DNA of 64,000 nucleotides, taken from assembly GCA_038895375.1 (NCBI GenBank), contig JAWANM010000001.1, positions 3,587 through 67,586 on the forward strand, written 5' to 3'. The notes beneath the pieces were generated by a model. It ran no database searches. It was not told the origin of the DNA and was given only the letters and a program-made list of their open reading frames with translations. Shown piece by piece: positions 748-53,808 of this stretch. A program made the translations under genes and the position numbers. The first letter of the stretch is position 1. Each line of letters opens with the position of its first letter. This DNA comes from Candidatus Pacearchaeota archaeon. GTDB lineage: Archaea > Nanobdellota > Nanobdellia > Pacearchaeales > UBA284.

Positions 748-1983
748 ATGAACAAATTCGTAACAACCATAGTAGTAGTGACGCTTTTAATAATCGGAAT
801 TGTAGGAGCGGCATTTTTTCTTTATCCTTACGAACCGAAAAAACCGCCGAGAGCAGACGATAGCGATTCAACGCTACATGGCATTCAAGAAGTTGTTGGC
901 TCGAACAACAAATTCGCTTTTGAGTTGTACTCCAGAATGGCCAATTACGAAGAAAATGTTTTCTTTTCTCCTTACAGTATTTATGCTGCTCTGGCAATCA
1001 CTTATGAAGGTGCAAAAGGAAGAACTGCCGAAGAAATCAAAAAAGTTTTCCATTTTCCGGAAAGCAGAGTATTGAGACCAAATTTTGCAGCAATCTACAA
1101 TTCTTTAAATGAAGAGCAAAAGAATTGTGAGCTTAAGACAGGAAACGCCTTATGGATACAAAAAGACCATCCTTTGCTTGAAGATTATAAAAGCAGAGTA
1201 GAAAAGTATTATGGCGCTAAAGCAGCCAACCTCGATTTTACTAAAGAAGAATCGAGACAAATGATTAATAATTTTATCGAAGAGCAAACAAACGGCAAAA
1301 TCAAAGATCTTATACCTAAAGGTTCTTTAGATCCAACAACTAGATTGGTTATTACAAATGCTATCTACTTCAAAGGAACCTGGTTATGGGAATTCGATCC
1401 AAAAAATACAAGAGAAATGGACTTCAAGGTAAACCAAACAAAAGTGGTAAAAGTTCCTATGATGTGTATGAAGCCAGATAAACCAAGATTCAACTATGCC
1501 GATCTAGATGATTTACAAATACTGGAGTTGCCTTACAAAGGAGAAAAAATTTCTATGCTGATTTTATTGCCGAAAGAAAATCTCGAAAGGATTGATTTAA
1601 CAGCAGAAAAAATTGAAGAATGGAAAAGTAAGATGGAAGAAACCAAATTGGACAGTATCTGCATACCAAAATTCGAACTTAAAACTAAATATTTGATGAA
1701 CGACCATCTCAAAGAATTGGGGATGCCTACCGCCTTTACTATAGAAGCGGATTTTTCTGGCATGAGTAAGGAAAAACTCTTTATCAATTTTGTAATTCAT
1801 CAAGCATACGTTAAAGTTGACGAAAAAGGAACAGAAGCGGCTGCAGCAACCGCAGTTACCATGGTGATGGCAACACCAAAAATGAAAGAATTCAAAGCAG
1901 ATCGTCCATTTATTTTTATAATTCAAGAAAAAATTACAGGAAATATTTTGTTTATAGGAAAGATAGTCGACCCTACGAAATAG
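748..1983 (+). CDS. Serpin (serine/cysteine protease inhibitor) with N-terminal TM/signal anchor
   Basis: SPYSIYAALAITYEGAKGRTAEEI and ITNAIYFKGTWLWEFD motifs. Hinge/reactive-centre loop DEKGTEAAAATAVTMVMATPK..RPFIFIIQE. N-terminal hydrophobic segment. Confidence 0.85.
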   Translation: MNKFVTTIVVVTLLIIGIVGAAFFLYPYEPKKPPRADDSDSTLHGIQEVVGSNNKFAFELYSRMANYEENVFFSPYSIYAALAITYEGAKGRTAEEIKKVFHFPESRVLRPNFAAIYNSLNEEQKNCELKTGNALWIQKDHPLLEDYKSRVEKYYGAKAANLDFTKEESRQMINNFIEEQTNGKIKDLIPKGSLDPTTRLVITNAIYFKGTWLWEFDPKNTREMDFKVNQTKVVKVPMMCMKPDKPRFNYADLDDLQILELPYKGEKISMLILLPKENLERIDLTAEKIEEWKSKMEETKLDSICIPKFELKTKYLMNDHLKELGMPTAFTIEADFSGMSKEKLFINFVIHQAYVKVDEKGTEAAAATAVTMVMATPKMKEFKADRPFIFIIQEKITGNILFIGKIVDPTK

Positions 1984-1987
1984 CGCT

Positions 1988-3211
1988 TCATCCAAGTTTC
2001 CTTTCAATTCTTAAAAGTTCATGCAGTTTTGCAAATCTTTCTTTTCCAAGAATTCCTGCTTTGATTATAGGAATTTGCCATCCTACTGCGAAGTGCGCTA
2101 GAGCATTATCGGAGGTTTCGCCAGAACGATGTGAGATTATGGGTATTAAATCATGCTTCCTCGCAAGCTCAACAACTTTTTTTGTTTCAAGCAAGCTCGC
2201 TACTTGATTCGGCTTTATTATTATAGCATTAATTGCTTTAAGCTTGATTGCTTTCTCTGCACGCTCTAAAGAAGTGCATGTCAAATCGTCACCACAAACC
2301 AAACAGTTCGTTGTTCTTGTTAGGGCAGCAAAATAATCAAAAGCTTCTTCATGAAAAGGATCTTCGACATAGAAAAGATTGTATTTTTTGATAAGCTCTT
2401 CAATGTATTGCTTCTGTTCCTCGTTTGTCAATGCCTTTTGTTTCTTTTTTTCGCTGAAATTTTTGTATTTGTAGTGCTTGGCTTGCCACAAAGAGTTTGC
2501 AGCAATATCTACTCCGAGCTTTAACTTTATATTGAATTTTTCTTTTATTTTGTCTCTAACTTCTAACATAATTTCAAGAACTTTTTCATTGTCAAGCGTG
2601 GCGGCCAAAGCGTTTTCATAAGTTAGGGTATTGTGCCATGTTTTATCTTTTTCTTTGAGTAAAGCTTTTGCTTCTTTGTATGCCTGAAGATTGATAAAAT
2701 AAGCATCGGAAAAGTTTTTTGTTTCTGGCATGATCAAAAATTCCTGAAAATCTGTTTTAAGTTCTTGTTCTGTGTGTTTACCGCCTCCGATGCAATTTCC
2801 TAGAGGCATTGGCATTTCGATTTTTTTCTCACCTGCAAGAAACTGCCATAGTTCTTTTCCTTGAGAAAAAGCCATGGCTTTCAAAACAGCAGTCTCTAAA
2901 GCGTAGAGAGCGTTTCCTCCGATGAGCGAAAAATCTTTAGTTTTGTCAAACTTTCTTACAAGTTCCTCGATTTTTGCAAGATCCTCAAAGGTTTCAAAAG
3001 TCAGTTGTTGTATAGGCTTTTGAAGCGCATTTATTACTCTAACTGAAAAGTCTATGCCTCTAATCGAAAAAGCCCTGACTTCATGCTTGCCTTTGCTCGA
3101 GCCTTCTGGAGCGCTAGCCTCAAAAGTTTTTTCCGTCTTGACAGTGACTGCAATCGTTTCTTCGTTTTTACTATTAAGAATTTTTCTCGCAAATACCTCC
3201 TTTATTTGCAT
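1988..3211 (-). CDS. eno: Enolase
   Basis: C-terminal SHRSGETSDNALAHFAVG motif. 407 aa. Adjacent to rpoK, a conserved archaeal neighbourhood. Confidence 0.9.
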   Translation of the reverse strand: MQIKEVFARKILNSKNEETIAVTVKTEKTFEASAPEGSSKGKHEVRAFSIRGIDFSVRVINALQKPIQQLTFETFEDLAKIEELVRKFDKTKDFSLIGGNALYALETAVLKAMAFSQGKELWQFLAGEKKIEMPMPLGNCIGGGKHTEQELKTDFQEFLIMPETKNFSDAYFINLQAYKEAKALLKEKDKTWHNTLTYENALAATLDNEKVLEIMLEVRDKIKEKFNIKLKLGVDIAANSLWQAKHYKYKNFSEKKKQKALTNEEQKQYIEELIKKYNLFYVEDPFHEEAFDYFAALTRTTNCLVCGDDLTCTSLERAEKAIKLKAINAIIIKPNQVASLLETKKVVELARKHDLIPIISHRSGETSDNALAHFAVGWQIPIIKAGILGKERFAKLHELLRIERKLG

Positions 3212-3568: not shown

Positions 3569-4378
3569 TTATTTGCTTTTAAATTTAATTTTTTCTCGAA
3601 GTTTTTTACCTTCTTTTACCAGAGTTTCTAAAATGTCTAACAATTTTTCTATTTCGATTGCTTCTTTACCATCTTTAAGCAAGCCGTGAATTATCGGTTC
3701 TTTATCGTAAACGACAGAAACTGTAAGCTGAAGAGTTGAAGCTTCTTGTTCTTCAGAACAAGGATCTAAAACAAAGGAATCGCCAATTTTATAAGCCGTT
3801 ATCGTTACAGGAGGCTCGTTCAGAGGAAGTTTTTTCTGCGTCAAACTGCCGAATTCTATCTTGCCGTTTTCGAATTTTGGAAATTTTGTGTCTAAAAGCG
3901 CGAGAACGCCTGCAAGAGCGCTCGCATCGATAAGATTGCCATCGTCATTCAAAGCGTAAATATCTAAAAAGATTGCCCAAACTAGCTTTCCTTCCTCTAT
4001 GCACAATTTTTTGAAATCGATAAATCCAGACTCGCGAATAGCTCTATCTACGATTCTAGCCAATTTTACAGCATCTATGTCTGGCGGACCCAACTCGAAT
4101 TTTTCCGAGGCAAGCGGATGAAGTTCTGCATCCACTATAAGTATACCCTCGTCTGGCGTATCAGGAAAAGGTTCGAGAACTTCTAACTTCGTTCCTGCTA
4201 TTACTTCTGTTTCTCCTATTCTTACACGTACAGAACCTTCTGCCTTGGAAGAAACGTTGAACTCTATAAAAATGTCTCTAAATTCATAAGGTTTTCTGGC
4301 ATCAATTCTTCTTCCCTTTTCAAGCAATTCACAAATTTTCTCTTTGGTCAGATTTGAAAGCTCCATTTTATTCAGCAA
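3569..4378 (-). CDS. rrp42: Exosome complex component Rrp42 (RNase PH-like, inactive)
   Basis: RNase PH fold signature R.DGR...E.R.I....V.....GS. Last gene of the Rrp4-Rrp41-Rrp42 order. 10-nt overlap with rrp41. Confidence 0.8.
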   Translation of the reverse strand: MLNKMELSNLTKEKICELLEKGRRIDARKPYEFRDIFIEFNVSSKAEGSVRVRIGETEVIAGTKLEVLEPFPDTPDEGILIVDAELHPLASEKFELGPPDIDAVKLARIVDRAIRESGFIDFKKLCIEEGKLVWAIFLDIYALNDDGNLIDASALAGVLALLDTKFPKFENGKIEFGSLTQKKLPLNEPPVTITAYKIGDSFVLDPCSEEQEASTLQLTVSVVYDKEPIIHGLLKDGKEAIEIEKLLDILETLVKEGKKLREKIKFKSK

Positions 4379-5087
4379 TCTTTTTAAGCGCTTGTTTTTG
4401 TATTGTTTCCAGTTTCAAACAAACTTTTTTTCCAAGTTCTAAAGCTTCTTTAAGCTCTGAAAGAGTTATATGACCATCGAGATGTAACAAAGAAAGTTTT
4501 TTCGAGCGCGGAAGAAATGCTAAGGCTATATCTGTAGCTGCTTTGATCTCTTTTCCATCTTTCTTTATTTTGTATTGCTCTTCATCATGGCTAAGATCTA
4601 CAACAATAGCATTGCCGACTTTGCCAACAGAAACTGCAGTAACCAGTTCGCTCATAGGAACGCCTGCAGAGGCCAAAGCCATCGAAGCAGCGTTTATAGC
4701 AGCGCATCTTGTAGAAGCATCTGCTTCGAGAATTTCAACATAAACATCGATTACTGTATTTGGAAAAGGTTCAAGGAGTACTGCCGGCTCGAGCGCTCTC
4801 GTAATTTCATCTGAAATCTCCAAACTTCTACGGCTTGGACCAGGTCTTTTTCTTTCTGCTACAGAAAAACTTATCATGTCATAATAACATCTAAGTATTG
4901 CTTTTTTCGGATTTTGTAAATGCTGCGGATAAAGCTGTCTAGGTCCATAAACAGCTGCTATAGCTTTACTATTGCCAAAAGCAAAAAAAGCAGATCCGTC
5001 TGCTCTCTTAATTACATTTATTTTTGCTTCTATTTTTCTCGTTTCATCAAAAGCTCTACCATCGGGTCTATTGAATTTTTCGCTCAT
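4368..5087 (-). CDS. rrp41: Exosome complex exonuclease Rrp41 (RNase PH)
   Basis: RPDGRAFDETRKIEAKINVIKRADGSAFFAFGNSKAIAAVYGPR. 4-nt overlap with rrp4. Confidence 0.85.
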   Translation of the reverse strand: MSEKFNRPDGRAFDETRKIEAKINVIKRADGSAFFAFGNSKAIAAVYGPRQLYPQHLQNPKKAILRCYYDMISFSVAERKRPGPSRRSLEISDEITRALEPAVLLEPFPNTVIDVYVEILEADASTRCAAINAASMALASAGVPMSELVTAVSVGKVGNAIVVDLSHDEEQYKIKKDGKEIKAATDIALAFLPRSKKLSLLHLDGHITLSELKEALELGKKVCLKLETIQKQALKKIAE

Positions 5088-5767
5088 TTTTTCTTTGCTT
5101 TCCTTAAAAATTCTTTTACATGATCTGTTAAGCCTTCTATAAAAGGTTTTTCAACAATAATTTTTATAGCTTCTCTTGCAAGCATTTCTTCTTCTATGCT
5201 TGGGCCTTTGATCCATATTAAACCATTTTGTCCTACGATTATGCTACAGTTAGTTTCTTGTTTTACTGTCGTAACCATGCTGCCTTCTTTTCCTATAATT
5301 CTAGGTACTCTTGTCGGGTTTACTCGCATCAAAAAGCCGGAAGTTAATTTTTTGCATGTCCTATCTTTCATTGTCAGTTCTACGCTTCTAGTCTTAATAC
5401 TTCGAACTTTGCTTACTATAATGTCGTTAACATCATAATACTCTGACAAATCTTTCTTATTTACATATCCTGCACATTCTGTTATCGGCAAAAAACCGAG
5501 ATGTGGCGACAATATGTCTACAATCCATCCATTGAAAGTAATGTCTATTACTTGTCCTATTACGGTGTTTCCGACTCTAGGTATATAAGTACCACTCAAA
5601 GGAATTACTTTAACAAGTTTGTCTGTTTTTTCTAGCAAACCAAATCTTAAAGCTACTATGTCTTTTCCTTCTCTTCTCGTTCCTTCACCGGGTAAAAAAT
5701 CTTGACCCGATGCGAGAATTTCACCGGGAACTACAATTTCTCCTCTAAGCTTCTCTTTCTTTTCCAT
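5084..5767 (-). CDS. rrp4: Exosome complex RNA-binding protein Rrp4 (S1 + KH)
   Basis: S1 domain (IPRVGNTVIGQVIDITFNGWIVDI). KH domain (VPRIIGKEGSMVTTVKQETNCSIIVGQNGLIWIKG). Confidence 0.85.
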   Translation of the reverse strand: MEKKEKLRGEIVVPGEILASGQDFLPGEGTRREGKDIVALRFGLLEKTDKLVKVIPLSGTYIPRVGNTVIGQVIDITFNGWIVDILSPHLGFLPITECAGYVNKKDLSEYYDVNDIIVSKVRSIKTRSVELTMKDRTCKKLTSGFLMRVNPTRVPRIIGKEGSMVTTVKQETNCSIIVGQNGLIWIKGPSIEEEMLAREAIKIIVEKPFIEGLTDHVKEFLRKAKKK

Positions 5768-5996
5768 TTTCTTCCTCGATTTTTGATGCTATTTTAATCA
5801 ATTCGAAAAAATTTGGTAAAAATAAAAGCAAGCGCCATCTTGAGTGCGGCGGTGCAAACTTGTTTATCCATTCATAAAAGAAAAAATTTTTTTCCACCCG
5901 GACCTTGATTTCTCTATTCTGCTCTTCTTCGATTTCCTTCAAAAGTTTTTCTATAAAATTGTCTTGAATTGTTTCTTCATAATTCATTTTCTTCAA
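5745..5996 (-). CDS. Hypothetical small protein (83 aa), possibly spurious
   Basis: ORF fills the rrp4-SBDS gap and overlaps both neighbours (23 nt and 4 nt). Low-complexity K/E/F-rich sequence. No recognisable motif. Confidence 0.2.
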   Translation of the reverse strand: MKKMNYEETIQDNFIEKLLKEIEEEQNREIKVRVEKNFFFYEWINKFAPPHSRWRLLLFLPNFFELIKIASKIEEENGKEREA

Positions 5997-6676
5997 GATT
6001 TAATTTCTTCGGTAATTGCAGATCCTTTTGTTAAATTGTTTAATTTATTATAAAATTCGAATTGCATTCCAGCCGGCAAATCAAGAATACATTTTAAAGA
6101 GCCATCGTTGAGCCATTCCTCTTTCTCTTTTCTGAATTTTTGTAAAAAAGAATATACTTGAGCTGTATATTGTGCCGGGACTGTAACGCTGATTTTTTTT
6201 GTTGCAATTTTTATTGGAATCTTTTTTTCGAGTTGTTTTAGTATGGCCAAAGCTTGTTCCATCGTGTCTCGATCATCTATTTTAACTCCTATCTCTTTGA
6301 TTGTATTTTCGAGCAGCGTTAACGTGTATGGCATATTCGTCCTTGGGTCTATACAATTTTTAGCTAGAAAATCTAGAATTTGCTTTAATTTTGCTTCTCT
6401 CGCTTTATCTCTGTACTCTTGCGGCAGTTGTATTTCCCCCTGCTTCAAAATCTTTGCAGCAATTTCATAAATGTCTTGAGTTCCAAAAGCTGTTTTCAAA
6501 TCATTGGAAGAAGCCCTAAGACCTTTTTTGTGATCTGTAAATATAACGTCTGTTACGAGAATTTCTCTAATAGCACCAACATCAAGTTTTCCTTTTTTGA
6601 ATTCTAATGCTTTATCACAATCAACAAGTATTTCAAAAGATTTATTTTTAACTCTTAATTTTGCGATAGTATCCAT
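5993..6676 (-). CDS. sdo1: Ribosome maturation protein SBDS/Sdo1
   Basis: VTDVIFTDHKKGLRASSNDLKTAFGTQDIYEIAAKIL is the SBDS N-terminal (FYSH) domain. Canonical position between psmA and rrp4. Confidence 0.8.
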   Translation of the reverse strand: MDTIAKLRVKNKSFEILVDCDKALEFKKGKLDVGAIREILVTDVIFTDHKKGLRASSNDLKTAFGTQDIYEIAAKILKQGEIQLPQEYRDKAREAKLKQILDFLAKNCIDPRTNMPYTLTLLENTIKEIGVKIDDRDTMEQALAILKQLEKKIPIKIATKKISVTVPAQYTAQVYSFLQKFRKEKEEWLNDGSLKCILDLPAGMQFEFYNKLNNLTKGSAITEEIKS

Positions 6677-6685
6677 TTTGAAGAA

Positions 6686-7408
6686 TTACTTTACATACTT
6701 GCTAAGCTGTTCCGGAGACAATTTTTTTGTTTTTTGATCTGATTTGGTAACATAATAAACGTCAAATCTTAGAAGATTGAAAGCCTTGCCGAGAATTTTT
6801 TTGAAAATGTTCAATGCCAATTTTATTCCTTGTTCTATTGTCATGCTTTCCTTATAAGACTCTCTCAGCATTTCAATGATTTTATCATCATTCTCGCCTA
6901 TGGCCGTAGCTTTATAACAAAAATAATTTCCTGTAACTTCACTAACGAAAAGTTTGACTGTTTCGTCTGTATTGACCCCGGCAATCATTATCTTTGTTCC
7001 GAAAGGCCTAACTCCGCTATATTGAGTATAAGCTTGTTTTATGTTTGCTATTTCCTTCATAACGCTTTCGACATCTATAGGCTCTTCGTAAGTTATTTTA
7101 TGCTGTTGTGCAAGAACTTGTGCTCTTTCTATAAGAATTCGAGCATCGCTCAAAACGCCTGCTGCACTAGCAATAATATGATCATCAACTTGATAAATTT
7201 TCATCGAAAATCCGGAATCCATCAGAGGATCGACAATTCTTTTATCTGTAACTATTAGCACGCCATCGCTGCAAACCATACCGATGCTTGCACTTCCTAG
7301 TCTTACTGTTTTTTCAGCATACTCTACCTGCAGCAATCTGCCTTCTGGCGAAAAAAGAGTGGCTGCTCTATCATAACCCATAACTTGATGTTGCATCTCA
7401 AAAGCCAT
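6686..7408 (-). CDS. psmA: Proteasome subunit alpha
   Basis: GYDRAATLFSPEGRLLQVEYA alpha-subunit N-terminus. 240 aa. Confidence 0.9.
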   Translation of the reverse strand: MAFEMQHQVMGYDRAATLFSPEGRLLQVEYAEKTVRLGSASIGMVCSDGVLIVTDKRIVDPLMDSGFSMKIYQVDDHIIASAAGVLSDARILIERAQVLAQQHKITYEEPIDVESVMKEIANIKQAYTQYSGVRPFGTKIMIAGVNTDETVKLFVSEVTGNYFCYKATAIGENDDKIIEMLRESYKESMTIEQGIKLALNIFKKILGKAFNLLRFDVYYVTKSDQKTKKLSPEQLSKYVK

Positions 7409-7537
7409 TTTAAAAATCGTTTAATTATTTTTTCTTTCCTTTACCTTTTACTCTTATTAAAAAAGAGAGATGATTTATAAAGGTTTCTATATAGCGCTTT
7501 CTAAAAGTCAAGAAAATAAAGCACGAGTTTAAAATTG

Positions 7538-7555
7538 AAAGCTCCGAGGAGCTTT
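7538..7555. promoter_or_regulatory. Perfect 8-bp inverted repeat AAAGCTCC-GA-GGAGCTTT in the divergent psmA / pilin-cluster intergenic region, followed by T5
   Basis: Read directly from the sequence. Could be an operator site or a hairpin. Confidence 0.3.
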
Positions 7556-7623
7556 TTGCTTTTAAATAGCATGCATAAAAAAACTTTTAAACTTATGAAG
7601 CGATAACTAACAAAAGAGGGAGA

Positions 7624-21381: not shown

Positions 21382-21414
21382 TAAATTTTTAAACTTTTTT
21401 TTATTAATTGTATT

Positions 21415-21740
21415 GCAGTTGAGAAGTTGGCTCTCCGGAAGGAGGAAGGTCCGCTCACCCCATCAAATTTTTGATGGAAGTGGCCGGCTTTCGCAAGAAA
21501 GCTTGCCGCGAGGCAAAGCTCTGCCACAGAAACGACACAGCTCTTGCTGAGAAATGAAGCTTGCGCAGATCTTTGAAGCAAGAGATTTGATGAAACGCCT
21601 CGAAAGAGGGACGCAAAAAATTTTTGCGTCGGCAACTCGGCCGGTGCAACTCGCATTCGCGAGGCTTAGTAGGATGCCAACATGGTCTGTTTGAAGCCAA
21701 AACTTCAAAGACCAACAAAAAGCGGCCTATTCTCAACTGC
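21415..21740 (+). ncRNA. rnpB: Structured GC-rich ncRNA, most likely RNase P RNA
   Basis: 340-nt GC-rich island with no coherent ORF. Termini form a perfect 10-bp helix (GCAGTTGAGA 21415-21424 / TCTCAACTGC 21731-21740). P3-like hairpin CUCC-GGAA-GGAG followed by GAAGGUCCGCUC (like CR-I GGAAAGUCCGGGCUC). ACAAAAAGCGGCCUAU near the 3' end (like CR-V ACAGAANCCGGCUUA) can pair with GGUCCGC (P4). Followed by hairpin GCTCGG-CTATC-CCGAGC plus TTTT. Confidence 0.6.
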
Positions 21741-21744
21741 ACTG

Positions 21745-21768
21745 CTCGGCTATCCCGAGCAGCTTTTC
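21745..21768 (+). terminator. Hairpin (GCTCGG/CCGAGC) plus T4 immediately after the ncRNA
   Basis: ctgctcggctatcccgagcagcttttcg. Confidence 0.4.
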
Positions 21769-23846: not shown

Positions 23847-23918
23847 GGTGGCTGTAGTATAATGGCAATACGCACGGCTGTGGCCCGTGAGACCTGGGTT
23901 CGATTCCCAGCTGCCACC
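23847..23918 (+). tRNA. tRNA-His (anticodon GTG) with encoded G-1
   Basis: G-1 then acceptor GTGGCTG/CTGCCAC (one U-U mismatch). D-stem GTAT/ATAC. Anticodon stem CACGG/CCGTG, loop CTGTGGC. T-arm CTGGG-TTCGATT-CCCAG. Discriminator C pairs with G-1. Confidence 0.8.
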
Positions 23919-23931
23919 CTTCCAAAATAAA

Positions 23932-25550: not shown

Positions 25551-26219
25551 TCACTCGGCGCTTAGAATTATTTTTTCAATTTCTTGATTTGATATTGAGC
25601 ATCCTTTGAATTTCAAAGCATAAAGCATGGCTTCGATTATTTTTTGCTTCGGAGCATCAAAATTTATAATCTTTTTATTCAAAGCGATCAAGACAAGTTC
25701 GCTAGAGCGAATGATGTTTATATTTTGAAAAAAATTATAATTTTCTCTATGAGCCTCGATTTTTCTATGCAATTTTTTTTCTAATAGCCTATGCAAGTTA
25801 TTCGGTGCTTCGCATAGCATTCTAGTAGTTCTTTCGTCTATTACTATCGCTTTTTTTTCTGCTCTAAGAATTTTGTATAAAGCAATACAAGAAGCCTCGC
25901 CTTCATGAATCAGCCTGACAAACTCGTTATTGGCTTTAAAAGTTTTATTTGCTTTTTCAAGAATTTTTTGTTTTTCTTTTTCTAAAAAAGAATCATCTGG
26001 ATAAATAGTTAAAATTCCTTTATCGATTAAATTTTTGATCATCAAGGCTTCCAAAGCAAAGCGATTTGTTTCTAGAGATTTATCGATGAGCTCTTCTTTT
26101 ATTGTTTTGGTAAGATAAAAATCTCCACCAAAAATTTTTTTCAAGGGTTCTAAAGTATAGAGCAAGTCGTTCAGAGCTAAAGAAATTATTGCGCTCGAAT
26201 CAAAAATCAGTGCTTTCAT
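25551..26219 (-). CDS. PIN-domain nuclease-like protein
   Basis: MKALIFDSSAIISLA N-terminus (Asp in strand 1). Further acidic positions (VIDERT). 222 aa. 4-nt overlap with the upstream HTH gene. Confidence 0.5.
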   Translation of the reverse strand: MKALIFDSSAIISLALNDLLYTLEPLKKIFGGDFYLTKTIKEELIDKSLETNRFALEALMIKNLIDKGILTIYPDDSFLEKEKQKILEKANKTFKANNEFVRLIHEGEASCIALYKILRAEKKAIVIDERTTRMLCEAPNNLHRLLEKKLHRKIEAHRENYNFFQNINIIRSSELVLIALNKKIINFDAPKQKIIEAMLYALKFKGCSISNQEIEKIILSAE

Positions 26220-26776
26220 CTGAACAAAGATTCTGCAAGTTTAATTCTTTTTTCTATAGGCAAAGTAATCGACAAGTCTATATCTGCTATTCCAGTAAGA
26301 CCAACGTATTCTGCAAGTTCCCATTGTGTAATTCCAAGTAGTCTTGCAGTTTCCGCTCTGGAAATGCCATGTTCGTAAATTCTAGAAGCCTTGTTTATTG
26401 CAGCTTTTCTAAAAACCTCTAAAATGTAAGTTTTCAACTTTGAACTTATTTTCTCTGTTTCTTTCCTTATGTTTATCATTTGCTCTCTAAAAGCCTCAAC
26501 ATTATCTTGTTCTAGAGCTTTTATGGCTCTATCTAAAAATTTCAGACATGCTCTAATAAAGCTTCGCCATTCGGGATATTCTCTGTAGTTCTGACGTTCA
26601 AGAATTTTGCTTAAAGTATAGATTGTAACTGCAAGCATAACAGCATCGGGATCTTTATAGATAGAAGCCGAGTGAATTGTTCTGTTCGACATATTTTTCA
26701 ACAAAACAATATCTCTTTCTTTTATTGCTTTTTTTGCATTTCTTAAAACTTTTAGAACGTTCTTTTTCTCTATCAT
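26216..26776 (-). CDS. Helix-turn-helix domain protein (C-terminal HTH) co-transcribed with PIN gene
   Basis: C-terminus GISRAETARLLGITQWELAEYVGL is a classic HTH. Confidence 0.45.
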   Translation of the reverse strand: MIEKKNVLKVLRNAKKAIKERDIVLLKNMSNRTIHSASIYKDPDAVMLAVTIYTLSKILERQNYREYPEWRSFIRACLKFLDRAIKALEQDNVEAFREQMINIRKETEKISSKLKTYILEVFRKAAINKASRIYEHGISRAETARLLGITQWELAEYVGLTGIADIDLSITLPIEKRIKLAESLFR

Positions 26777-34178: not shown

Positions 34179-34252
34179 GGCTGTGTAACTCAGTTGGTTA
34201 GAGTGCCGCTCTCATAAGGCGGATGTCGAGGGTTCGAATCCCTCCACAGCCA
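34179..34252 (+). tRNA. tRNA-Met (anticodon CAT; elongator Met or Ile2)
   Basis: Acceptor GGCTGTG/CACAGCC. D-stem ACTC/GAGT. Anticodon stem CCGCT/GGCGG, loop CTCATAA. T-arm GAGGG-TTCGAAT-CCCTC. Confidence 0.8.
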
Positions 34253-34938: not shown

Positions 34939-35011
34939 ATGCCCCTTCTGGGAGTCGAACCCAGATCTCAGCCTCCGCAGGGCTGCATTCTATCCTGTTA
35001 AACTAAAGGGG
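34939..35011 (-). tRNA. tRNA-Arg (anticodon GCG)
   Basis: Minus strand: acceptor GCCCCTT/AAGGGGC. Anticodon stem CAGCC/GGCTG, loop CTGCGGA. T-arm CTGGG-TTCGACT-CCCAG. Confidence 0.75.
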
Positions 35012-35064
35012 CTAAGAAAAAAAGGCTTCGAGACTTTTATAGTTTTTGTTATTTTCTCTTGACC

Positions 35065-40279: not shown

Positions 40280-40362
40280 GCCGCGATGGCCCAACTGGTA
40301 CGGCGCACGCTTGGAGAGCGTGTTTCCGAAAGGATTTCCAGGTTCGAATCCTGGTCGCGGCG
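40280..40362 (+). tRNA. tRNA-Ser (anticodon GGA), intron-less
   Basis: Acceptor GCCGCGA/TCGCGGC. Anticodon stem CACGC/GCGTG, loop TTGGAGA. Variable arm TCCGAAAGGA. T-arm CCAGG-TTCGAAT-CCTGG. Confidence 0.8.
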
Positions 40363-47898: not shown

Positions 47899-47971
47899 GG
47901 GCCTGTGGTCTAGTGGCTATGACGTCTCCCTTACGCGGAGAAGGTCCTCGGTTCGAATCCGAGCAGGCCCA
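47899..47971 (+). tRNA. tRNA-Val (anticodon TAC)
   Basis: Acceptor GGGCCTG/CAGGCCC. Anticodon stem TCTCC/GGAGA, loop CTTACGC. T-arm CTCGG-TTCGAAT-CCGAG. Preceded by an 8-nt direct duplication of its own 5' end (GGGCCTGT). Confidence 0.85.
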
Positions 47972-52346: not shown

Positions 52347-53008
52347 TCGAAAAAAAATTTGTAGAAGCAAAGAAACAAGAATTTGAAATCAAAGAGTTTA
52401 TAAGAAACAAATTTGGCAAAGGCAAAATAAGCGAAATAAAGTTAGAAAGAACACCCATAGGAGAAAAAATAATAATTACCACACCAAAAAAAGGACTTGT
52501 GCTAGGAAAAGCTTATGAAAATATTCAAGAGCTTGTGAGTACCTTAAAAAAGAAATTCAAACTGGAAAATCCGCAAATAGAAGTCGTAGAAATAGATCCT
52601 GAATTTGATGCACAAACAATAGCCGATCGAATTGCTTTGGCTTTAGAAAGATTCGGTCCTTTGAGCTTTAAGCTAATAGCCTATAGAGAGCTAGAAAGAT
52701 TGGCAAAAGCAGGAGCACTCGGAGCAGAAATAAGGTTGAGTGGAAAATTGCCAAGCGAAAGAGCAAAGTCTTGGCTTTTTTCTTTCGGATATCTGAAAAA
52801 AACAGGGGAAACGAGATACATTGTTAAGAAAGCAAAAGCTGTTGCAGAAACGAAGCCAGGAATAATAGGAATTAAAGTAGCAATAGTCCCTAAAGATACT
52901 AAAATACCAGACAAGATTGAAATAAATTATGAAGAGCTTAATAAAATAAGGAAAAAAATAGAAGAATTGGAAAAATTAGAAAAAAATGGCAATAATAAGA
53001 AAAAGTGA
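52343..53008 (+). CDS. rps3: Ribosomal protein S3 (uS3)
   Basis: KH domain. Position in operon. Confidence 0.85.
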   Translation: MIEKKFVEAKKQEFEIKEFIRNKFGKGKISEIKLERTPIGEKIIITTPKKGLVLGKAYENIQELVSTLKKKFKLENPQIEVVEIDPEFDAQTIADRIALALERFGPLSFKLIAYRELERLAKAGALGAEIRLSGKLPSERAKSWLFSFGYLKKTGETRYIVKKAKAVAETKPGIIGIKVAIVPKDTKIPDKIEINYEELNKIRKKIEELEKLEKNGNNKKK

Positions 53009-53174
53009 ATTGAGAGCTATGTCTAAAGAAGAACTCGAAGAAAAATTGAAACAGCTAAAATTAGAAATTTTAAAAATAAAAAGTAAAAAGGGACAAACAC
53101 CTAGTGGAACTAAAAAAATTAAAGAAATTAAAAAAACCATAGCTAGAATTTATACTAAGTTGAAAGAAAAATAA
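52986..53174 (+). CDS. rpl29: Ribosomal protein L29 (uL29)
   Basis: MAIIRKSELRAMSKEELEEKLKQLKLEILKIK. Confidence 0.85.
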   Translation: MAIIRKSELRAMSKEELEEKLKQLKLEILKIKSKKGQTPSGTKKIKEIKKTIARIYTKLKEK

Positions 53175-53175
53175 G

Positions 53176-53466
53176 ATGGAGATATGTCCTAGATGTGGTT
53201 TGCCAAAAGAAGCTTGCAGTTGCAGTGCTCTAGAGAAACAGCAGCAAAAAATAAGAATTTCAACAGTAGAGAGAAAGTTTAAAAAGAAAGTTACAATAAT
53301 CGAAGGAATATCTCAAGACATAAAAAAGATAGCCAAACAATTGAAAGAAGAACTTGCATGCGGAGGTACTGTCAAAGACAATAGAATAGAATTGCAGGGA
53401 GATCATGAAAAAAAAGTAAGAGAGAAACTGATAAAGCTTGGATTCAGTGAGGAAAATATAGAATAA
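53176..53466 (+). CDS. sui1: Translation initiation factor SUI1 (aSUI1/eIF1 homolog)
   Basis: N-terminal Cys cluster (CPRCGLPKEACSC). ..ACGGTVKDNRIELQGDHEKKVREKL. Confidence 0.8.
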   Translation: MEICPRCGLPKEACSCSALEKQQQKIRISTVERKFKKKVTIIEGISQDIKKIAKQLKEELACGGTVKDNRIELQGDHEKKVREKLIKLGFSEENIE

Positions 53467-53511
53467 AAAATAAAAAAGAAAAAATAAAGGAAAAAGTTAA
53501 ACAAAGGTAAA

Positions 53512-53808
53512 ATGGAATATACATGTAAAGATAAAAAATGTCCTTTCCATGGAAAGCTTAGTACAAGAGGACGAATCTTCAAAGGGACGGTAAAAAAGAT
53601 ACACGATAGTAGAGCAGTAGTAGAGTTTACAAGATTTGTGTATTATAAAAAATATGAAAGATACGCTAAAGCAAAAACAAGATTGCATGCACATATTCCG
53701 GCATGCATGCTAAAAGACATAAAGCCTGGCGACACTGTAAAAGTTTCGGAATGCAGGCCTTTAAGTAAAATAATACATTTTGTCGTTATAGAAATAGTGA
53801 AAAAATGA
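53512..53808 (+). CDS. rps17: Ribosomal protein S17 (uS17)
   Basis: CPFHGKLSTRGRIFKGTVKKIHDSRAVVEF. Confidence 0.85.
   Translation: MEYTCKDKKCPFHGKLSTRGRIFKGTVKKIHDSRAVVEFTRFVYYKKYERYAKAKTRLHAHIPACMLKDIKPGDTVKVSECRPLSKIIHFVVIEIVKK

Follow-up and report, generated by a model that had tools for sequence, protein, structure and literature searches.

RNase P, the enzyme that trims the 5′ ends of tRNAs, is a textbook ribozyme that gained proteins in archaea and eukaryotes. To our knowledge, its natural reductions have affected RNA and protein together, as in Pyrobaculum, or the entire enzyme, as in Nanoarchaeum equitans. In the Pyrobaculum lineage, nearly the entire S-domain disappeared from the RNA along with the S-domain-binding protein, and N. 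equitans has no RNase P and leaderless tRNAs. Organisms with a type M RNA retain all five RNase P proteins (RPPs). The stretch between P5 and P7 is occupied by a P6 strand in type A RNAs and by P5.1 in bacterial type B RNAs.

The features that define type M include the lack of L15, P16, P17, and P6 and, in reconstituted archaeal enzymes, Rpp21–Rpp29 strongly raises substrate affinity (PMC3001054). RPP21 is missing in Thermoproteaceae; in Nst1, a member of the Nanoarchaeota, the RPR is small, POP5 was not found, and RPP29 is kept (PMC4919917). In the survey of Daniels et al., none of the archaeal genomes studied was without an RPP. Searches of the literature brought up no publication on RNase P in Pacearchaeota or Woesearchaeota.

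Here, the locus under study is read as encoding a catalytic RNase P RNA of a lineage-specific type, whose holoenzyme most likely works without canonical Rpp29. We place the probability of this reading, taken as a whole, at roughly 85%.

An RNase P RNA Gene in Candidatus Pacearchaeota

The window, i.e., the whole stretch of DNA that was analyzed, covers 64 kb of a genome of about 0.6–0.7 Mb. Its segment 21415..21740, on the forward strand, is an archaeal RNase P RNA gene of Candidatus Pacearchaeota (DPANN). This 326-nt segment matches the Rfam family RNaseP_arch (RF00373) with 97.8 bits against a gathering score of 84, at an E-value of 4.6e-26 and over model positions 1–288 of 288. An earlier note, made from the letters of the window, had proposed an RNase P RNA of about 326 nt at this place, and both its coordinates and the elements it named (P1, P3, CR-I, CR-V, and P4) are borne out by the Rfam match and by covariation in seven sequences. 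As described there, the island is GC-rich (50% G+C, against 33.8% in the window and 25–35% in the flanks) and has no coherent ORF, being overlapped only by short or antisense ones. Its ends pair perfectly (GCAGUUGAGA/UCUCAACUGC), the CUCC-GGAA-GGAG hairpin is followed by GAAGGUCCGCU, which comprises CR-I and the 5′ strand of P4, and ACAAAAAGCGGCCUA near the 3′ end (21715-21729) comprises CR-V and the 3′ strand of P4. The 326-nt RNA folds with a minimum free energy (MFE) of −133.7 kcal/mol; this stability is far beyond chance, since z is −7.2 and 0/100 shuffles are as low. By homology, the predicted activity of the RNA is the cleavage of pre-tRNA 5′ leaders.

An equivalent of the TATA-like box and its A-rich upstream stretch (Table 1), of the form AAA-N-YTTTTWAAA, is found at the same distance from P1 in 7/7 homologs. 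This BRE/TATA element, centered about 25 nt upstream, would be the promoter of the RNA gene, which appears to form its own transcription unit ending at the T-run. The hairpin and U4 noticed earlier after the RNA are present in the window, where they probably act as a terminator. The hairpin is specific to the window genome, though, and in the relatives the RNA is followed by T-runs alone.

TABLE 1. Coordinates of the RNA gene elements and of the two ancestral RPP loci in the window.
Feature	Position	Strand	Details
Proteasome-exosome operon, Pop5/Rpp30 ancestral locus	3569..7408	−	Pfam; neither gene present
Rrp42	3569-4378	−	Pfam
Rrp41	4368-5087	−	Pfam
Rrp4	5084-5767	−	Pfam
83-aa ORF	5745-5996	−	In proteasome-exosome operon
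SBDS	5993-6676	−	Pfam
PsmA	6686-7408	−	Pfam
TATA-like box TTTTTAAA, preceded by an A-rich BRE-like stretch	21386..21393	+	−29..−22 relative to RNA 5′ end
P1 5′ strand	21415..21424	+	Pairs with 21731-21740; 7/10 pairs compensatory
P2 5′ strand GUUGGC	21426..21431	+	Pairs with 21676-21681 (GCCAAC); 4/6 compensatory
P3, minimal 4-bp hairpin, GGAA loop	21433..21444	+	Alignment A5
CR-I / J3/4 and P4 5′ strand (A21447-U21455, bulged U21450)	21444..21455	+	P4 partner 21721-21728
P5 5′ strand CACC	21456..21459	+	Pairs with 21643-21646 (GGUG); invariant in 7/7
Extra hairpin between P5 and P7, CCAUCA-AAUUUU-UGAUGG	21460..21477	+	Insertion in cmscan alignment
P7 5′ strand	21482-21486	+	Pairs with 21638-21642; 4/5 compensatory
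P8 hairpin, GCAA loop	21487-21502	+	100% paired; 3/6 pairs compensatory
P9 hairpin, GCGA loop	21503-21516	+	3/5 pairs compensatory
P10/11 5′ strand	21517-21525	+	Pairs with 21631-21637; 3/4 pairs compensatory (helix 11)
CR-II ACAGAAACGACACAG	21526-21540	+	Invariant in 7/7
P12 arm	21541..21584	+	Basal stem 7/7 pairs compensatory
CR-III AUUUGAUGAAACG	21585..21597	+	UGAUGAAA invariant in 7/7
Extra hairpins CCUC-GAAA-GAGG (21598-21609) and GACGCAAAA-AAU-UUUUGCGUC (21610-21630)	21598..21630	+	Between CR-III and P11 3′ strand
P15 stub hairpin CUCGC-AUUC-GCGAG	21650..21663	+	Without L15, P16, P17, P6
J15/2, CR-IV region GCUUAGUAGGAU	21664..21675	+	Conserved GC..AGU..GAUG; agrees with Rfam consensus GCuuAGucGAAUG
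P19-position helix	21683..21714	+	Between P2 3′ strand and J19/4-P4; 12/12 pairs covary, 7 sequences
J19/4 and CR-V, including P4 3′ strand (21721-21728)	21715..21730	+	ACA.AA..GGCCUA conserved
8-bp hairpin CUGCUCGG/CCGAGCAG (21742-21762), then C and T4 (21764-21767); probable terminator	21742..21767	+	Read from sequence
L29 (PF00831)	52986-53174	+	Pfam on identical proteins; upstream flank
SUI1/aIF1 (PF01253)	53176-53466	+	Pfam on identical proteins; upstream flank of Rpp29 slot
Empty Rpp29 slot, 45-nt A-rich spacer	53467..53511	+	No ORF, no gene remnant
S17 (PF00366)	53512-53808	+	Downstream flank of slot

Covariation and Constraint

Six syntenic homologs, with RNAs of 289–440 nt, were obtained from other Pacearchaeota and aligned with the window RNA (alignment A5; loci L181 and L182 end before the RNA). 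Covariation with homologs had been put forward as a check on the RNase P reading, and it is found throughout these seven sequences. RNAalifold identifies compensatory changes in 55/80 pairs when P4 is not included; with P4 added, double changes occur in 58/84 pairs and 96.8% of the cells are paired, against 35–47% in slid controls, and 0/500 shuffles attain the observed values. The universal two-domain architecture of RNase P RNAs (P1-P5, P7-P12) is thereby upheld. In addition, CR-I to CR-V are all present and invariant or nearly so (GAGGAAGGUCC, ACAGAAACGA, UGAUGAAACG, GCUUAGU..GAUG, and ACA.AA..GGCCUA). Half of the six relatives do not reach the RF00373 gathering score (69.6, 74.5, and 82.1 bits), so standard annotation will describe such genomes as lacking an RNase P RNA. 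A pattern scan of viral contigs for RNase P RNA gave bacterial-type RNAs only.

A decaying relic, heading for loss as in N. equitans because the tRNAs are transcribed almost without leaders, would be another way to view this gene. In a comparison that covers this lineage and N. equitans, four of the five tRNA genes of the window have TATA-like boxes at −31/−30 to −24/−23, which is where such boxes have been reported for the leaderless tRNAs of N. equitans (PMC10100707). Moreover, one protein subunit is already missing. However, no variation is seen in the catalytic and substrate-binding motifs, nearly every helix has been kept by compensatory change in seven lineages, and a short tRNA-His leader is retained in several relatives, all of which makes a relic very improbable. 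Taken with a neighboring protein that is only 52–79% identical across the seven lineages, the invariant motifs and compensatory changes argue for purifying selection on a working RNA. Archaeal SRP RNA is of similar length (about 300 nt) and likewise rich in G+C, with a terminal helix that closes it, but there is next to no chance that the island is this or some other structured RNA: in a permissive Rfam scan (E ≤ 10) RNaseP_arch was the only family found (E 4e-28, full model) and no SRP RNA family matched, covariation is found in CR-I to CR-V and in the P4 pseudoknot, and the comparison of RF00373 with SRP models that had been suggested at the outset came out for RNase P.

Helical Architecture of the RNA

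The C-domain is made up of P1-P5, the P4 pseudoknot with its bulged U, CR-I, CR-IV, and CR-V. Five of the eight P4 pairs are invariant and three are compensatory, with 94.6% of the cells paired in the seven sequences. A lineage-specific G in GAAGGUCC is matched by a C in GGCCUA in 7/7 sequences. The Rfam consensus reads GAAAGUCC and GGcUUA at these places; the CR-I/CR-V pair in P4 is therefore G-C instead of A-U, and the two changes compensate each other. P3, minimal in the window, reaches about 65 nt in two relatives (L177 and L183). The hairpin between P5 and P7 is found in 7/7 sequences, with a length of 12–50 nt and closing pairs that covary. Similarly, a P15 stub of 5–6 bp is present in 7/7 sequences with 4/5 pairs compensatory; in the Rfam alignment, P15 has 4 nt instead of 35 model positions. 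The helix at the P19 position is an insertion with respect to the Rfam archaeal model, and its position is that of P19 in human H1 RNA (PMC13022451).

The S-domain comprises the P7-P10 cruciform, P12, and CR-II/CR-III, the module that binds the tRNA elbow. Within P12, tandem G.A motifs are invariant and K-turn-like (G21549 A21550; G21556 A21557; A21569; G21575 A21576), from which we infer the L7Ae-binding (double) K-turn described previously (PMC5499556). The CR-III stretch is misaligned by cmscan, with low posterior probability. Both hairpins that follow CR-III are in the MFE fold and lie at the position of bacterial P13/P14, helices that are normally missing in archaeal RNAs (PMC4919922). 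They are present in the window and in three relatives (L176, L175, and L183) and absent from the other three (L174, L177, and L178).

Comparison With Known RNA Classes

The window RNA is neither type A nor type M and constitutes a lineage-specific structural variant, since it keeps P8, as type A does, and has lost L15, P16, P17, and P6, as type M has. With archaeal type A (RF00373; Methanothermobacter, Pyrococcus) it shares P1-P5, the P7-P8-P9-P10 cruciform, the K-turn-like G.A motifs of P12, CR-I to CR-V, and the P4 pseudoknot with its bulged U. Type A RNAs differ in having L15, P16, P17, and P6, whereas P15 is reduced here to a 5-bp stub; beyond type A, the window RNA has the P19-position helix, the P5-P7 hairpin, and the two hairpins after CR-III, and its P3 is minimal. 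Type M RNAs (Methanococcales, Archaeoglobus) have the same losses and a P15 that is a simple hairpin, but are without P8, which is present and covarying here in 7/7 sequences. A P19/eP19 helix, the lack of P16, P17, and P6, and a hairpin after P5 (P5.1 in type B) are also seen in bacterial type B and eukaryal nuclear RNAs, a likeness that is probably one of position only, the sequence motifs and the Rfam score putting the window RNA firmly within the archaeal family.

Among lineages with a reduced enzyme, the Thermoproteaceae with type T/P RNAs (Pyrobaculum) resemble the window lineage as archaea with a smaller RNase P protein set; in contrast to Pyrobaculum, the S-domain is complete here, though Rpp29 is truncated or absent. 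The Nanoarchaeota (N. equitans, Nst1) are likewise DPANN members with reductive RNase P evolution, but in the window lineage the RNA is retained under strong constraint and the affected subunit is Rpp29.

The Rpp29 Slot of the Ribosomal Protein Operon

The slot of Rpp29, upstream of S17, is the best-conserved RPP locus (PMC4919917). That SUI1 is followed after 45 bp by rps17, with Rpp29 missing between them, had been remarked in the earlier note, and this holds both in the window and across its lineage. Rpp29 is absent from the slot in six independent assemblies of the window species (four NCBI MAGs and two SRA assemblies), in the closed relative genome CP070794.1, one 623-kb contig, and one JGI contig, and in 66 of the 69 metagenome relatives where the two flanking genes are both present. 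In the other three of these 69, and in several named genomes, the slot contains an Rpp29 shortened to about 60 aa; among the closest relatives still having Rpp29, the slot-borne truncated PF01868 proteins measure 59–73 aa. A mini-Rpp29 is also known from the closed genome CP061211.1. Rpp29 (PF01868) is an unreliable marker gene for this Pacearchaeota clade. An Rpp29 HMM had no match in a six-frame search of the whole 64-kb window, and a screen of SUI1-S17 spacers for decayed Rpp29 gave lysine-rich, low-complexity matches only. Small ORFs that lack Pfam matches and are inserted in the ribosomal protein operons of relatives (L008 and L010) were considered as divergent Rpp29, but have no PF01868 signal; the slot of L064 is occupied by an unrelated ORF of 93 aa.

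The earlier note had left the subunit as either relocated or lost. Its absence from the slot stands; between the two outcomes the evidence leans to loss, which we judge somewhat the better supported. Rpp29 could also have moved elsewhere, or diverged or shrunk past detection, leaving a holoenzyme with the usual protein set, which we hold to be unlikely but well short of negligible. Only 64 kb of the genome are visible in the window, and the loci of the relatives were followed for up to 10 kb on either side; rapid evolution is usual among DPANN proteins, and an Rpp29 of 55–73 aa is easily missed by gene callers. The S-domain, i.e., the Rpp21–Rpp29 binding site, is fully kept, with CR-II and CR-III invariant as in a normal binding site, and this counts against loss of Rpp29. 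On the other hand, Rpp29 lies directly upstream of S17 in 80/80 loci from diverse archaeal genomes of many phyla, and never elsewhere, so relocation is rare. Neither CP070794.1 nor the MAGs of the window species contain a match to the motif VIDETKN[MLT], an exact motif to which the genome scan was confined and which a relocated, divergent mini-Rpp29 would escape. Furthermore, the series in one slot from full length to truncated to absent resembles decay rather than transfer, and the six-frame search of the window gave no match. That the missing gene is an artefact of assembly or binning, conceivable since the sources are MAGs, is extremely improbable, given that the identical SUI1-45 nt-S17 junction occurs in the four NCBI MAGs and in two independent SRA assemblies, and the same junction type in a closed genome and dozens of JGI contigs.

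The idea that extra RNA helices compensate for the loss of Rpp29 is not supported, as the helices do not track Rpp29 status. CP070794.1, whose slot lacks Rpp29, has the shortest RNA (289 nt) and no hairpins after CR-III; Pace33H, with a mini-Rpp29, has the longest (440 nt).

A Possible Course of Reduction

In the proposed sequence of events, Rpp29 would first have shrunk in sister lineages, where an Sm-like core of about 60 aa was left, and would then have been cleanly deleted from the ribosomal protein operon in the window lineage. L7Ae would probably still be bound to the K-turn-like motifs in P12, and the holoenzyme most likely works without canonical Rpp29. Loss of Rpp29 alone is forbidden neither by the reconstitution data nor by the survey of Daniels et al. 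If a widespread DPANN order has truncated and then deleted Rpp29 and yet keeps the S-domain, the Rpp29–Rpp21 pair would be dispensable in vivo, and the natural series from about 90 aa to about 60 aa to none could be used to dissect the contribution of Rpp29.

A wider reading, which we offer tentatively and consider doubtful, is that Pacearchaeota have an RNase P without Rpp29, and probably without its obligate partner Rpp21, together with a complete S-domain, and represent an intermediate in the direction of N. equitans. Given that the two ancestral RPP loci of the window are both empty, the classical RPPs (Pop5, Rpp30, Rpp21, and Rpp29) may all be gone. In that case, the only support left to the RNA would come from L7Ae and lineage-specific helices (P19 plus the additional hairpins), perhaps joined by lineage-specific proteins. 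Under this wider reading, the tRNA promoters would be set for leaders of 0–2 nt, and the lineage would stand midway between archaea with a standard RNase P and N. equitans, which has none.

Other RNase P Proteins and Neighboring Genes

A search of the window ORFs for Rpp21, Pop5, Rpp30, and L7Ae found none of them. The ancestral arrangement places Pop5 and Rpp30 by the proteasome/exosome operon (PMC4919917); in the window, the region upstream of psmA (7409-7623) is non-coding and followed by divergent membrane-protein genes. The empty locus is weak evidence of their absence, since fragmented RPP loci are known in some archaeal orders (PMC4919917).

The presence of a protein-only HARP, which the earlier note had taken, in combination with a lack of all RNase P protein genes, as an argument against an RNase P RNA, was also considered. 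None of the window ORFs scanned matches HARP (PF08745, TIGR03875), which is reported to be missing from all DPANN (PMC6380272), and the RNase P RNA reading stands. A PIN-like ORF (25551-26219) was rejected as a HARP candidate, having no match to HARP models or to PDB HARP chains; a profile of its 45-member family is also without a HARP match, and its single-sequence AlphaFold model (pLDDT 36) is too poor for fold comparison. Similarly, a 148-aa protein linked to the RNA gene was rejected as a new RNase P subunit, its HEPN fold being unlike known RPPs. This protein is tied to the RNA gene by synteny alone.

Identity and conservation of the RNase P RNA gene

The island under study, in a host annotated as Candidatus Pacearchaeota (DPANN, kingdom Nanobdellati), has a G+C content of 50%, against 33.8% for the whole window and 25-35% for the flanks, and is overlapped by short or antisense ORFs only. 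Its predicted fold (-133.7 kcal/mol, z = -7.2) was equaled by none of 100 shuffled sequences, and RF00373, the Rfam archaeal RNase P model (gathering score 84), matches exactly this interval over the full length of the model (97.8 bits, E = 4.6e-26). The earlier note had described a GC-rich island without coherent ORF and read it as RNase P RNA, to be distinguished from SRP RNA. This reading is borne out, as are the elements on which it relied: the terminal helix of 10 bp, the CUCC-GGAA-GGAG hairpin with GAAGGUCCGCU after it, ACAAAAAGCGGCCUA close to the 3' end, and the 8-bp hairpin plus T4 beyond the RNA. SRP RNA is ruled out, since a permissive Rfam scan of the region (E<=10) returned neither it nor any other family of note. 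The RNA is thus assigned, by its sequence, to a known family, the archaeal RNase P RNAs.

The gene just downstream encodes a 148-aa protein, whose homologues (about 500) come without exception from Pacearchaeota-like sources. The order of the genes is conserved (surface protein, non-coding gap, Sec61beta, two paralogous small proteins, MinD/ParA, tRNA-His, HisRS), and the gap contains an RNase P RNA in every relative with sufficient upstream sequence. Three of the six Pacearchaeota relatives (L175, L183, and L176) have RNAs that fall under the gathering score because of large insertions, and routine annotation would miss them.

Coordinates, lengths, and scores of the features discussed (bits refer to RF00373; identity refers to S17 of the window)
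Feature	Source	Position	Strand	Length	Score or identity
RNase P RNA	window	21415..21740	+	326 nt	97.8 bits
RNase P RNA	L174, CP070794.1			289 nt	128 bits
RNase P RNA	L178/L179, SRA and NCBI contigs			306 nt	131 bits
RNase P RNA	L177, JAVZYK01			360 nt	118 bits
RNase P RNA	L176, JAWAPZ01	2832-3192		361 nt	82.1 bits
RNase P RNA	L183, CAYGZP01	1056-1466		411 nt	74.5 bits
RNase P RNA	L175, CP061211.1 (Pace33H)	2248-2687		440 nt	69.6 bits
Rpp29	JAUXAK01			59 aa	71%
Rpp29	Pace33H (CP061211.1, closed)			73 aa	
Rpp29	other genomes near the window by S17 identity			61-68 aa	
SUI1-S17 junction	window	53467..53511		45 nt	
Proteasome/exosome operon	window	3569-7408	-		
ORF between SBDS and Rrp4	window	5745-5996	-	83 aa	
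PIN-like ORF	window	25551-26219	-		
Upstream neighbor of PIN-like ORF	window	26216-26776	-		
tRNA-His	window	23848-23919			
tRNA-Met	window	34179-34252			
tRNA-Arg	window	34940-35012	-		
tRNA-Ser	window	40280-40362			
tRNA-Val	window	47899-47971			

Two RNAs from outside the window, by-products of a pattern scan, lie on "viral" contigs. On the 60-kb IMGVR_UViG_3300027902_000011, a true bacterial class A RNase P RNA of 280 nt (170.9 bits) adjoins tRNAs. The 97-kb IMGVR_UViG_3300044712_000851 has about 40 tRNA genes, one tmRNA, and an RNase P-like RNA of 281 nt, which scores 51.6 bits with bacterial class A RNase P (gathering score 100).

Covariation and RNA architecture

In an alignment of seven RNAs (the window and six relatives), 55 of the 80 pairs in the RNAalifold structure show compensatory double changes. 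When the P4 pseudoknot, which has three covarying pairs, was put in by hand on top of this structure, double changes affected 58 of 84 pairs and 96.8% of cells were in standard pairs, versus 35-47% with partners slid by 1-3 columns; the observed values were reached by none of 500 shuffles. Compared with the Rfam consensus (GAAAGUCC and GGcUUA), each of the seven RNAs carries G in GAAGGUCC together with C in GGCCUA; the P4 base pair concerned is therefore compensated and serves as a lineage signature. Conserved regions CR-II (CACAGAAACGACACAG) and CR-III (UGAUGAAA) are invariant. The invariant motifs for catalysis and elbow binding, and compensatory changes throughout the structure, contradict the view of the gene as a relic. 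In the best-supported picture, the RNA would be a functional RNase P ribozyme, independently transcribed and under strong purifying selection.

P8 and P9 are retained and both covary; type M RNAs, in contrast, lack P8, as well as P6, P16, P17, and L15 (PMC3001054). Archaeal RNase P RNAs are generally devoid of P13/P14 and P18 (PMC4919922). In all seven sequences P15 ends after a stub of 5 bp, and a hairpin stands between P5 and P7. Another helix common to all seven separates the P2 3' strand from the J/4-P4 strand (12/12 pairs covary) and is an insertion relative to the Rfam archaeal model; the same position is named P19 in human H1 RNA and bacteria (PMC13022451). In four of the seven RNAs, that of the window among them, CR-III is followed, ahead of the P11 3' strand, by two further hairpins, one with a GAAA loop, and P3 varies from 12 nt (window) to ~65 nt. 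The invariant tandem G/A positions of P12 are consistent with a K-turn module such as the L7Ae-binding one of type A and type M RNAs (PMC5499556). Taken as a whole, the predicted architecture fits no described archaeal type (A, M, T/P), which marks the window RNA as an architectural variant, unlike type A and type M.

Probable loss of Rpp29

The ancestral position of RPP29, at the SUI1-S17 site, is the best-conserved RNase P protein locus of archaea (PMC4919917). The window operon runs L3-L4-L23-L2-S19-L22-S3-L29-SUI1-(45 nt)-S17-L14 onwards, and the absence of Rpp29 from this slot, pointed out in the earlier note, recurs in same-species assemblies and relatives. The same empty junction was found in six assemblies of the window species (four NCBI MAGs and two from the SRA), in the closed genome CP070794.1, one 623-kb contig, and one JGI contig, and in 66 of 69 metagenome loci carrying both flanking genes (S17 53-69% identical to that of the window). 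Recurrence across independent assemblies, together with the closed genome, rules out an assembly artefact. In the other three metagenome loci the slot is occupied by an ORF of 59-61 aa, which Pfam assigns to the Rpp29 family PF01868 (42-48 bits, cutoff 27; profile positions 4-57 of 84). In the alignment, these mini-Rpp29 forms end just past the K-L-I-K-x-Q strand; the compact forms, of 81-98 aa, continue with C-terminal strands and an RPE(D/E)RIK motif that the mini forms do not have. No Rpp29 was detected in the 64-kb window when all six frames were searched with an HMM profile of mini-Rpp29 (best E 0.49), and no Rpp29 remnants were found in the SUI1-S17 spacers of relatives.

A scan of 185,579 species genomes with the single exact motif VIDETKN[MLT] yielded 271 Rpp29 relatives. 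In all 80 loci retrieved from these 271 (Woese-, Pace-, Micr-, Aenigmat-, and Iainarchaeota, Methanosarcinales, Methanoregula, Thermococci, Bathyarchaeia, and others), Rpp29 is immediately upstream of S17, which suggests that it rarely moves. Among the 80, those nearest to the window by S17 identity have truncated Rpp29 only; the clade thus shows, at one locus, a series of compact, truncated, and absent Rpp29. Rpp29 has thus probably been lost, rather than relocated, in the window lineage (probability of about 0.6). The lineage-wide truncation and deletion of Rpp29 is mentioned in no paper that we found.

The hypothesis that added RNA helices substitute for lost Rpp29 is unsupported: CP070794.1 combines an empty slot with the smallest RNA, and Pace33H a mini-Rpp29 with the largest. 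Elsewhere in the operon, L4 and L23 of CP070794.1 are separated by an inserted gene for a 3'-5' exonuclease of the RNase_T family (L007 287-913), and in two loci of relatives (L054 and L063) S17 directly follows L22, with S3, L29, and SUI1 missing from the operon.

Other RNase P proteins and HARP

The ancestral Pop5-Rpp30 locus adjoins the proteasome/exosome operon (PMC4919917); Pfam detected neither protein in this operon of the window. Similarly, Rpp21, Pop5, Rpp30, and L7Ae were found neither among window ORFs of up to 305 aa (Pfam) nor in the precomputed annotations of 43.2-63.5 kb. RNase P would most likely work with a reduced protein set. In the exosome operon, an 83-aa ORF without family match lies between SBDS and Rrp4, with overlapping start and stop codons.

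The earlier note had also named a protein-only HARP as a counter-indication; none of the window ORFs scanned matches PF08745 or TIGR03875, and Daniels et al. (PMC6380272) report HARP in none of the DPANN genomes. One window ORF with a PIN-domain-like start belongs to a family of about 511 representatives with invariant D7, E43, D128, and E129, which has no Pfam, NCBIfam, or PDB match. It was rejected as HARP at the level of sequence and profile: no match to HARP models or to PDB HARP chains was obtained, with the ORF itself or with a 45-member profile. Among the matches listed, ~10% of its PIN-like relatives are 400-430 aa long with the PIN-like domain at the C-terminus, and their N-terminal part is equal in size to the upstream neighbor gene.

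Putative transcription signals

A BRE/TATA-like element precedes the RNase P RNA at equal distance in all seven sequences, with its TATA-like box at -29..-22 in the window, and a T-run follows in all seven, preceded by a hairpin only in the window. In a sample of just 11 unique tRNA genes without control set, the TATA-like boxes of the window genes for tRNA Met, Ser, Val, and Arg lie at -31/-30 to -24/-23, counted from the mature 5' end, so that leaders of ~0-2 nt are to be expected. This placement matches that in N. equitans, where a box "26 or 27 nt upstream" makes tRNAs leaderless (PMC10100707). The tRNA-His gene encodes G-1, and its box is farther upstream in several relatives.
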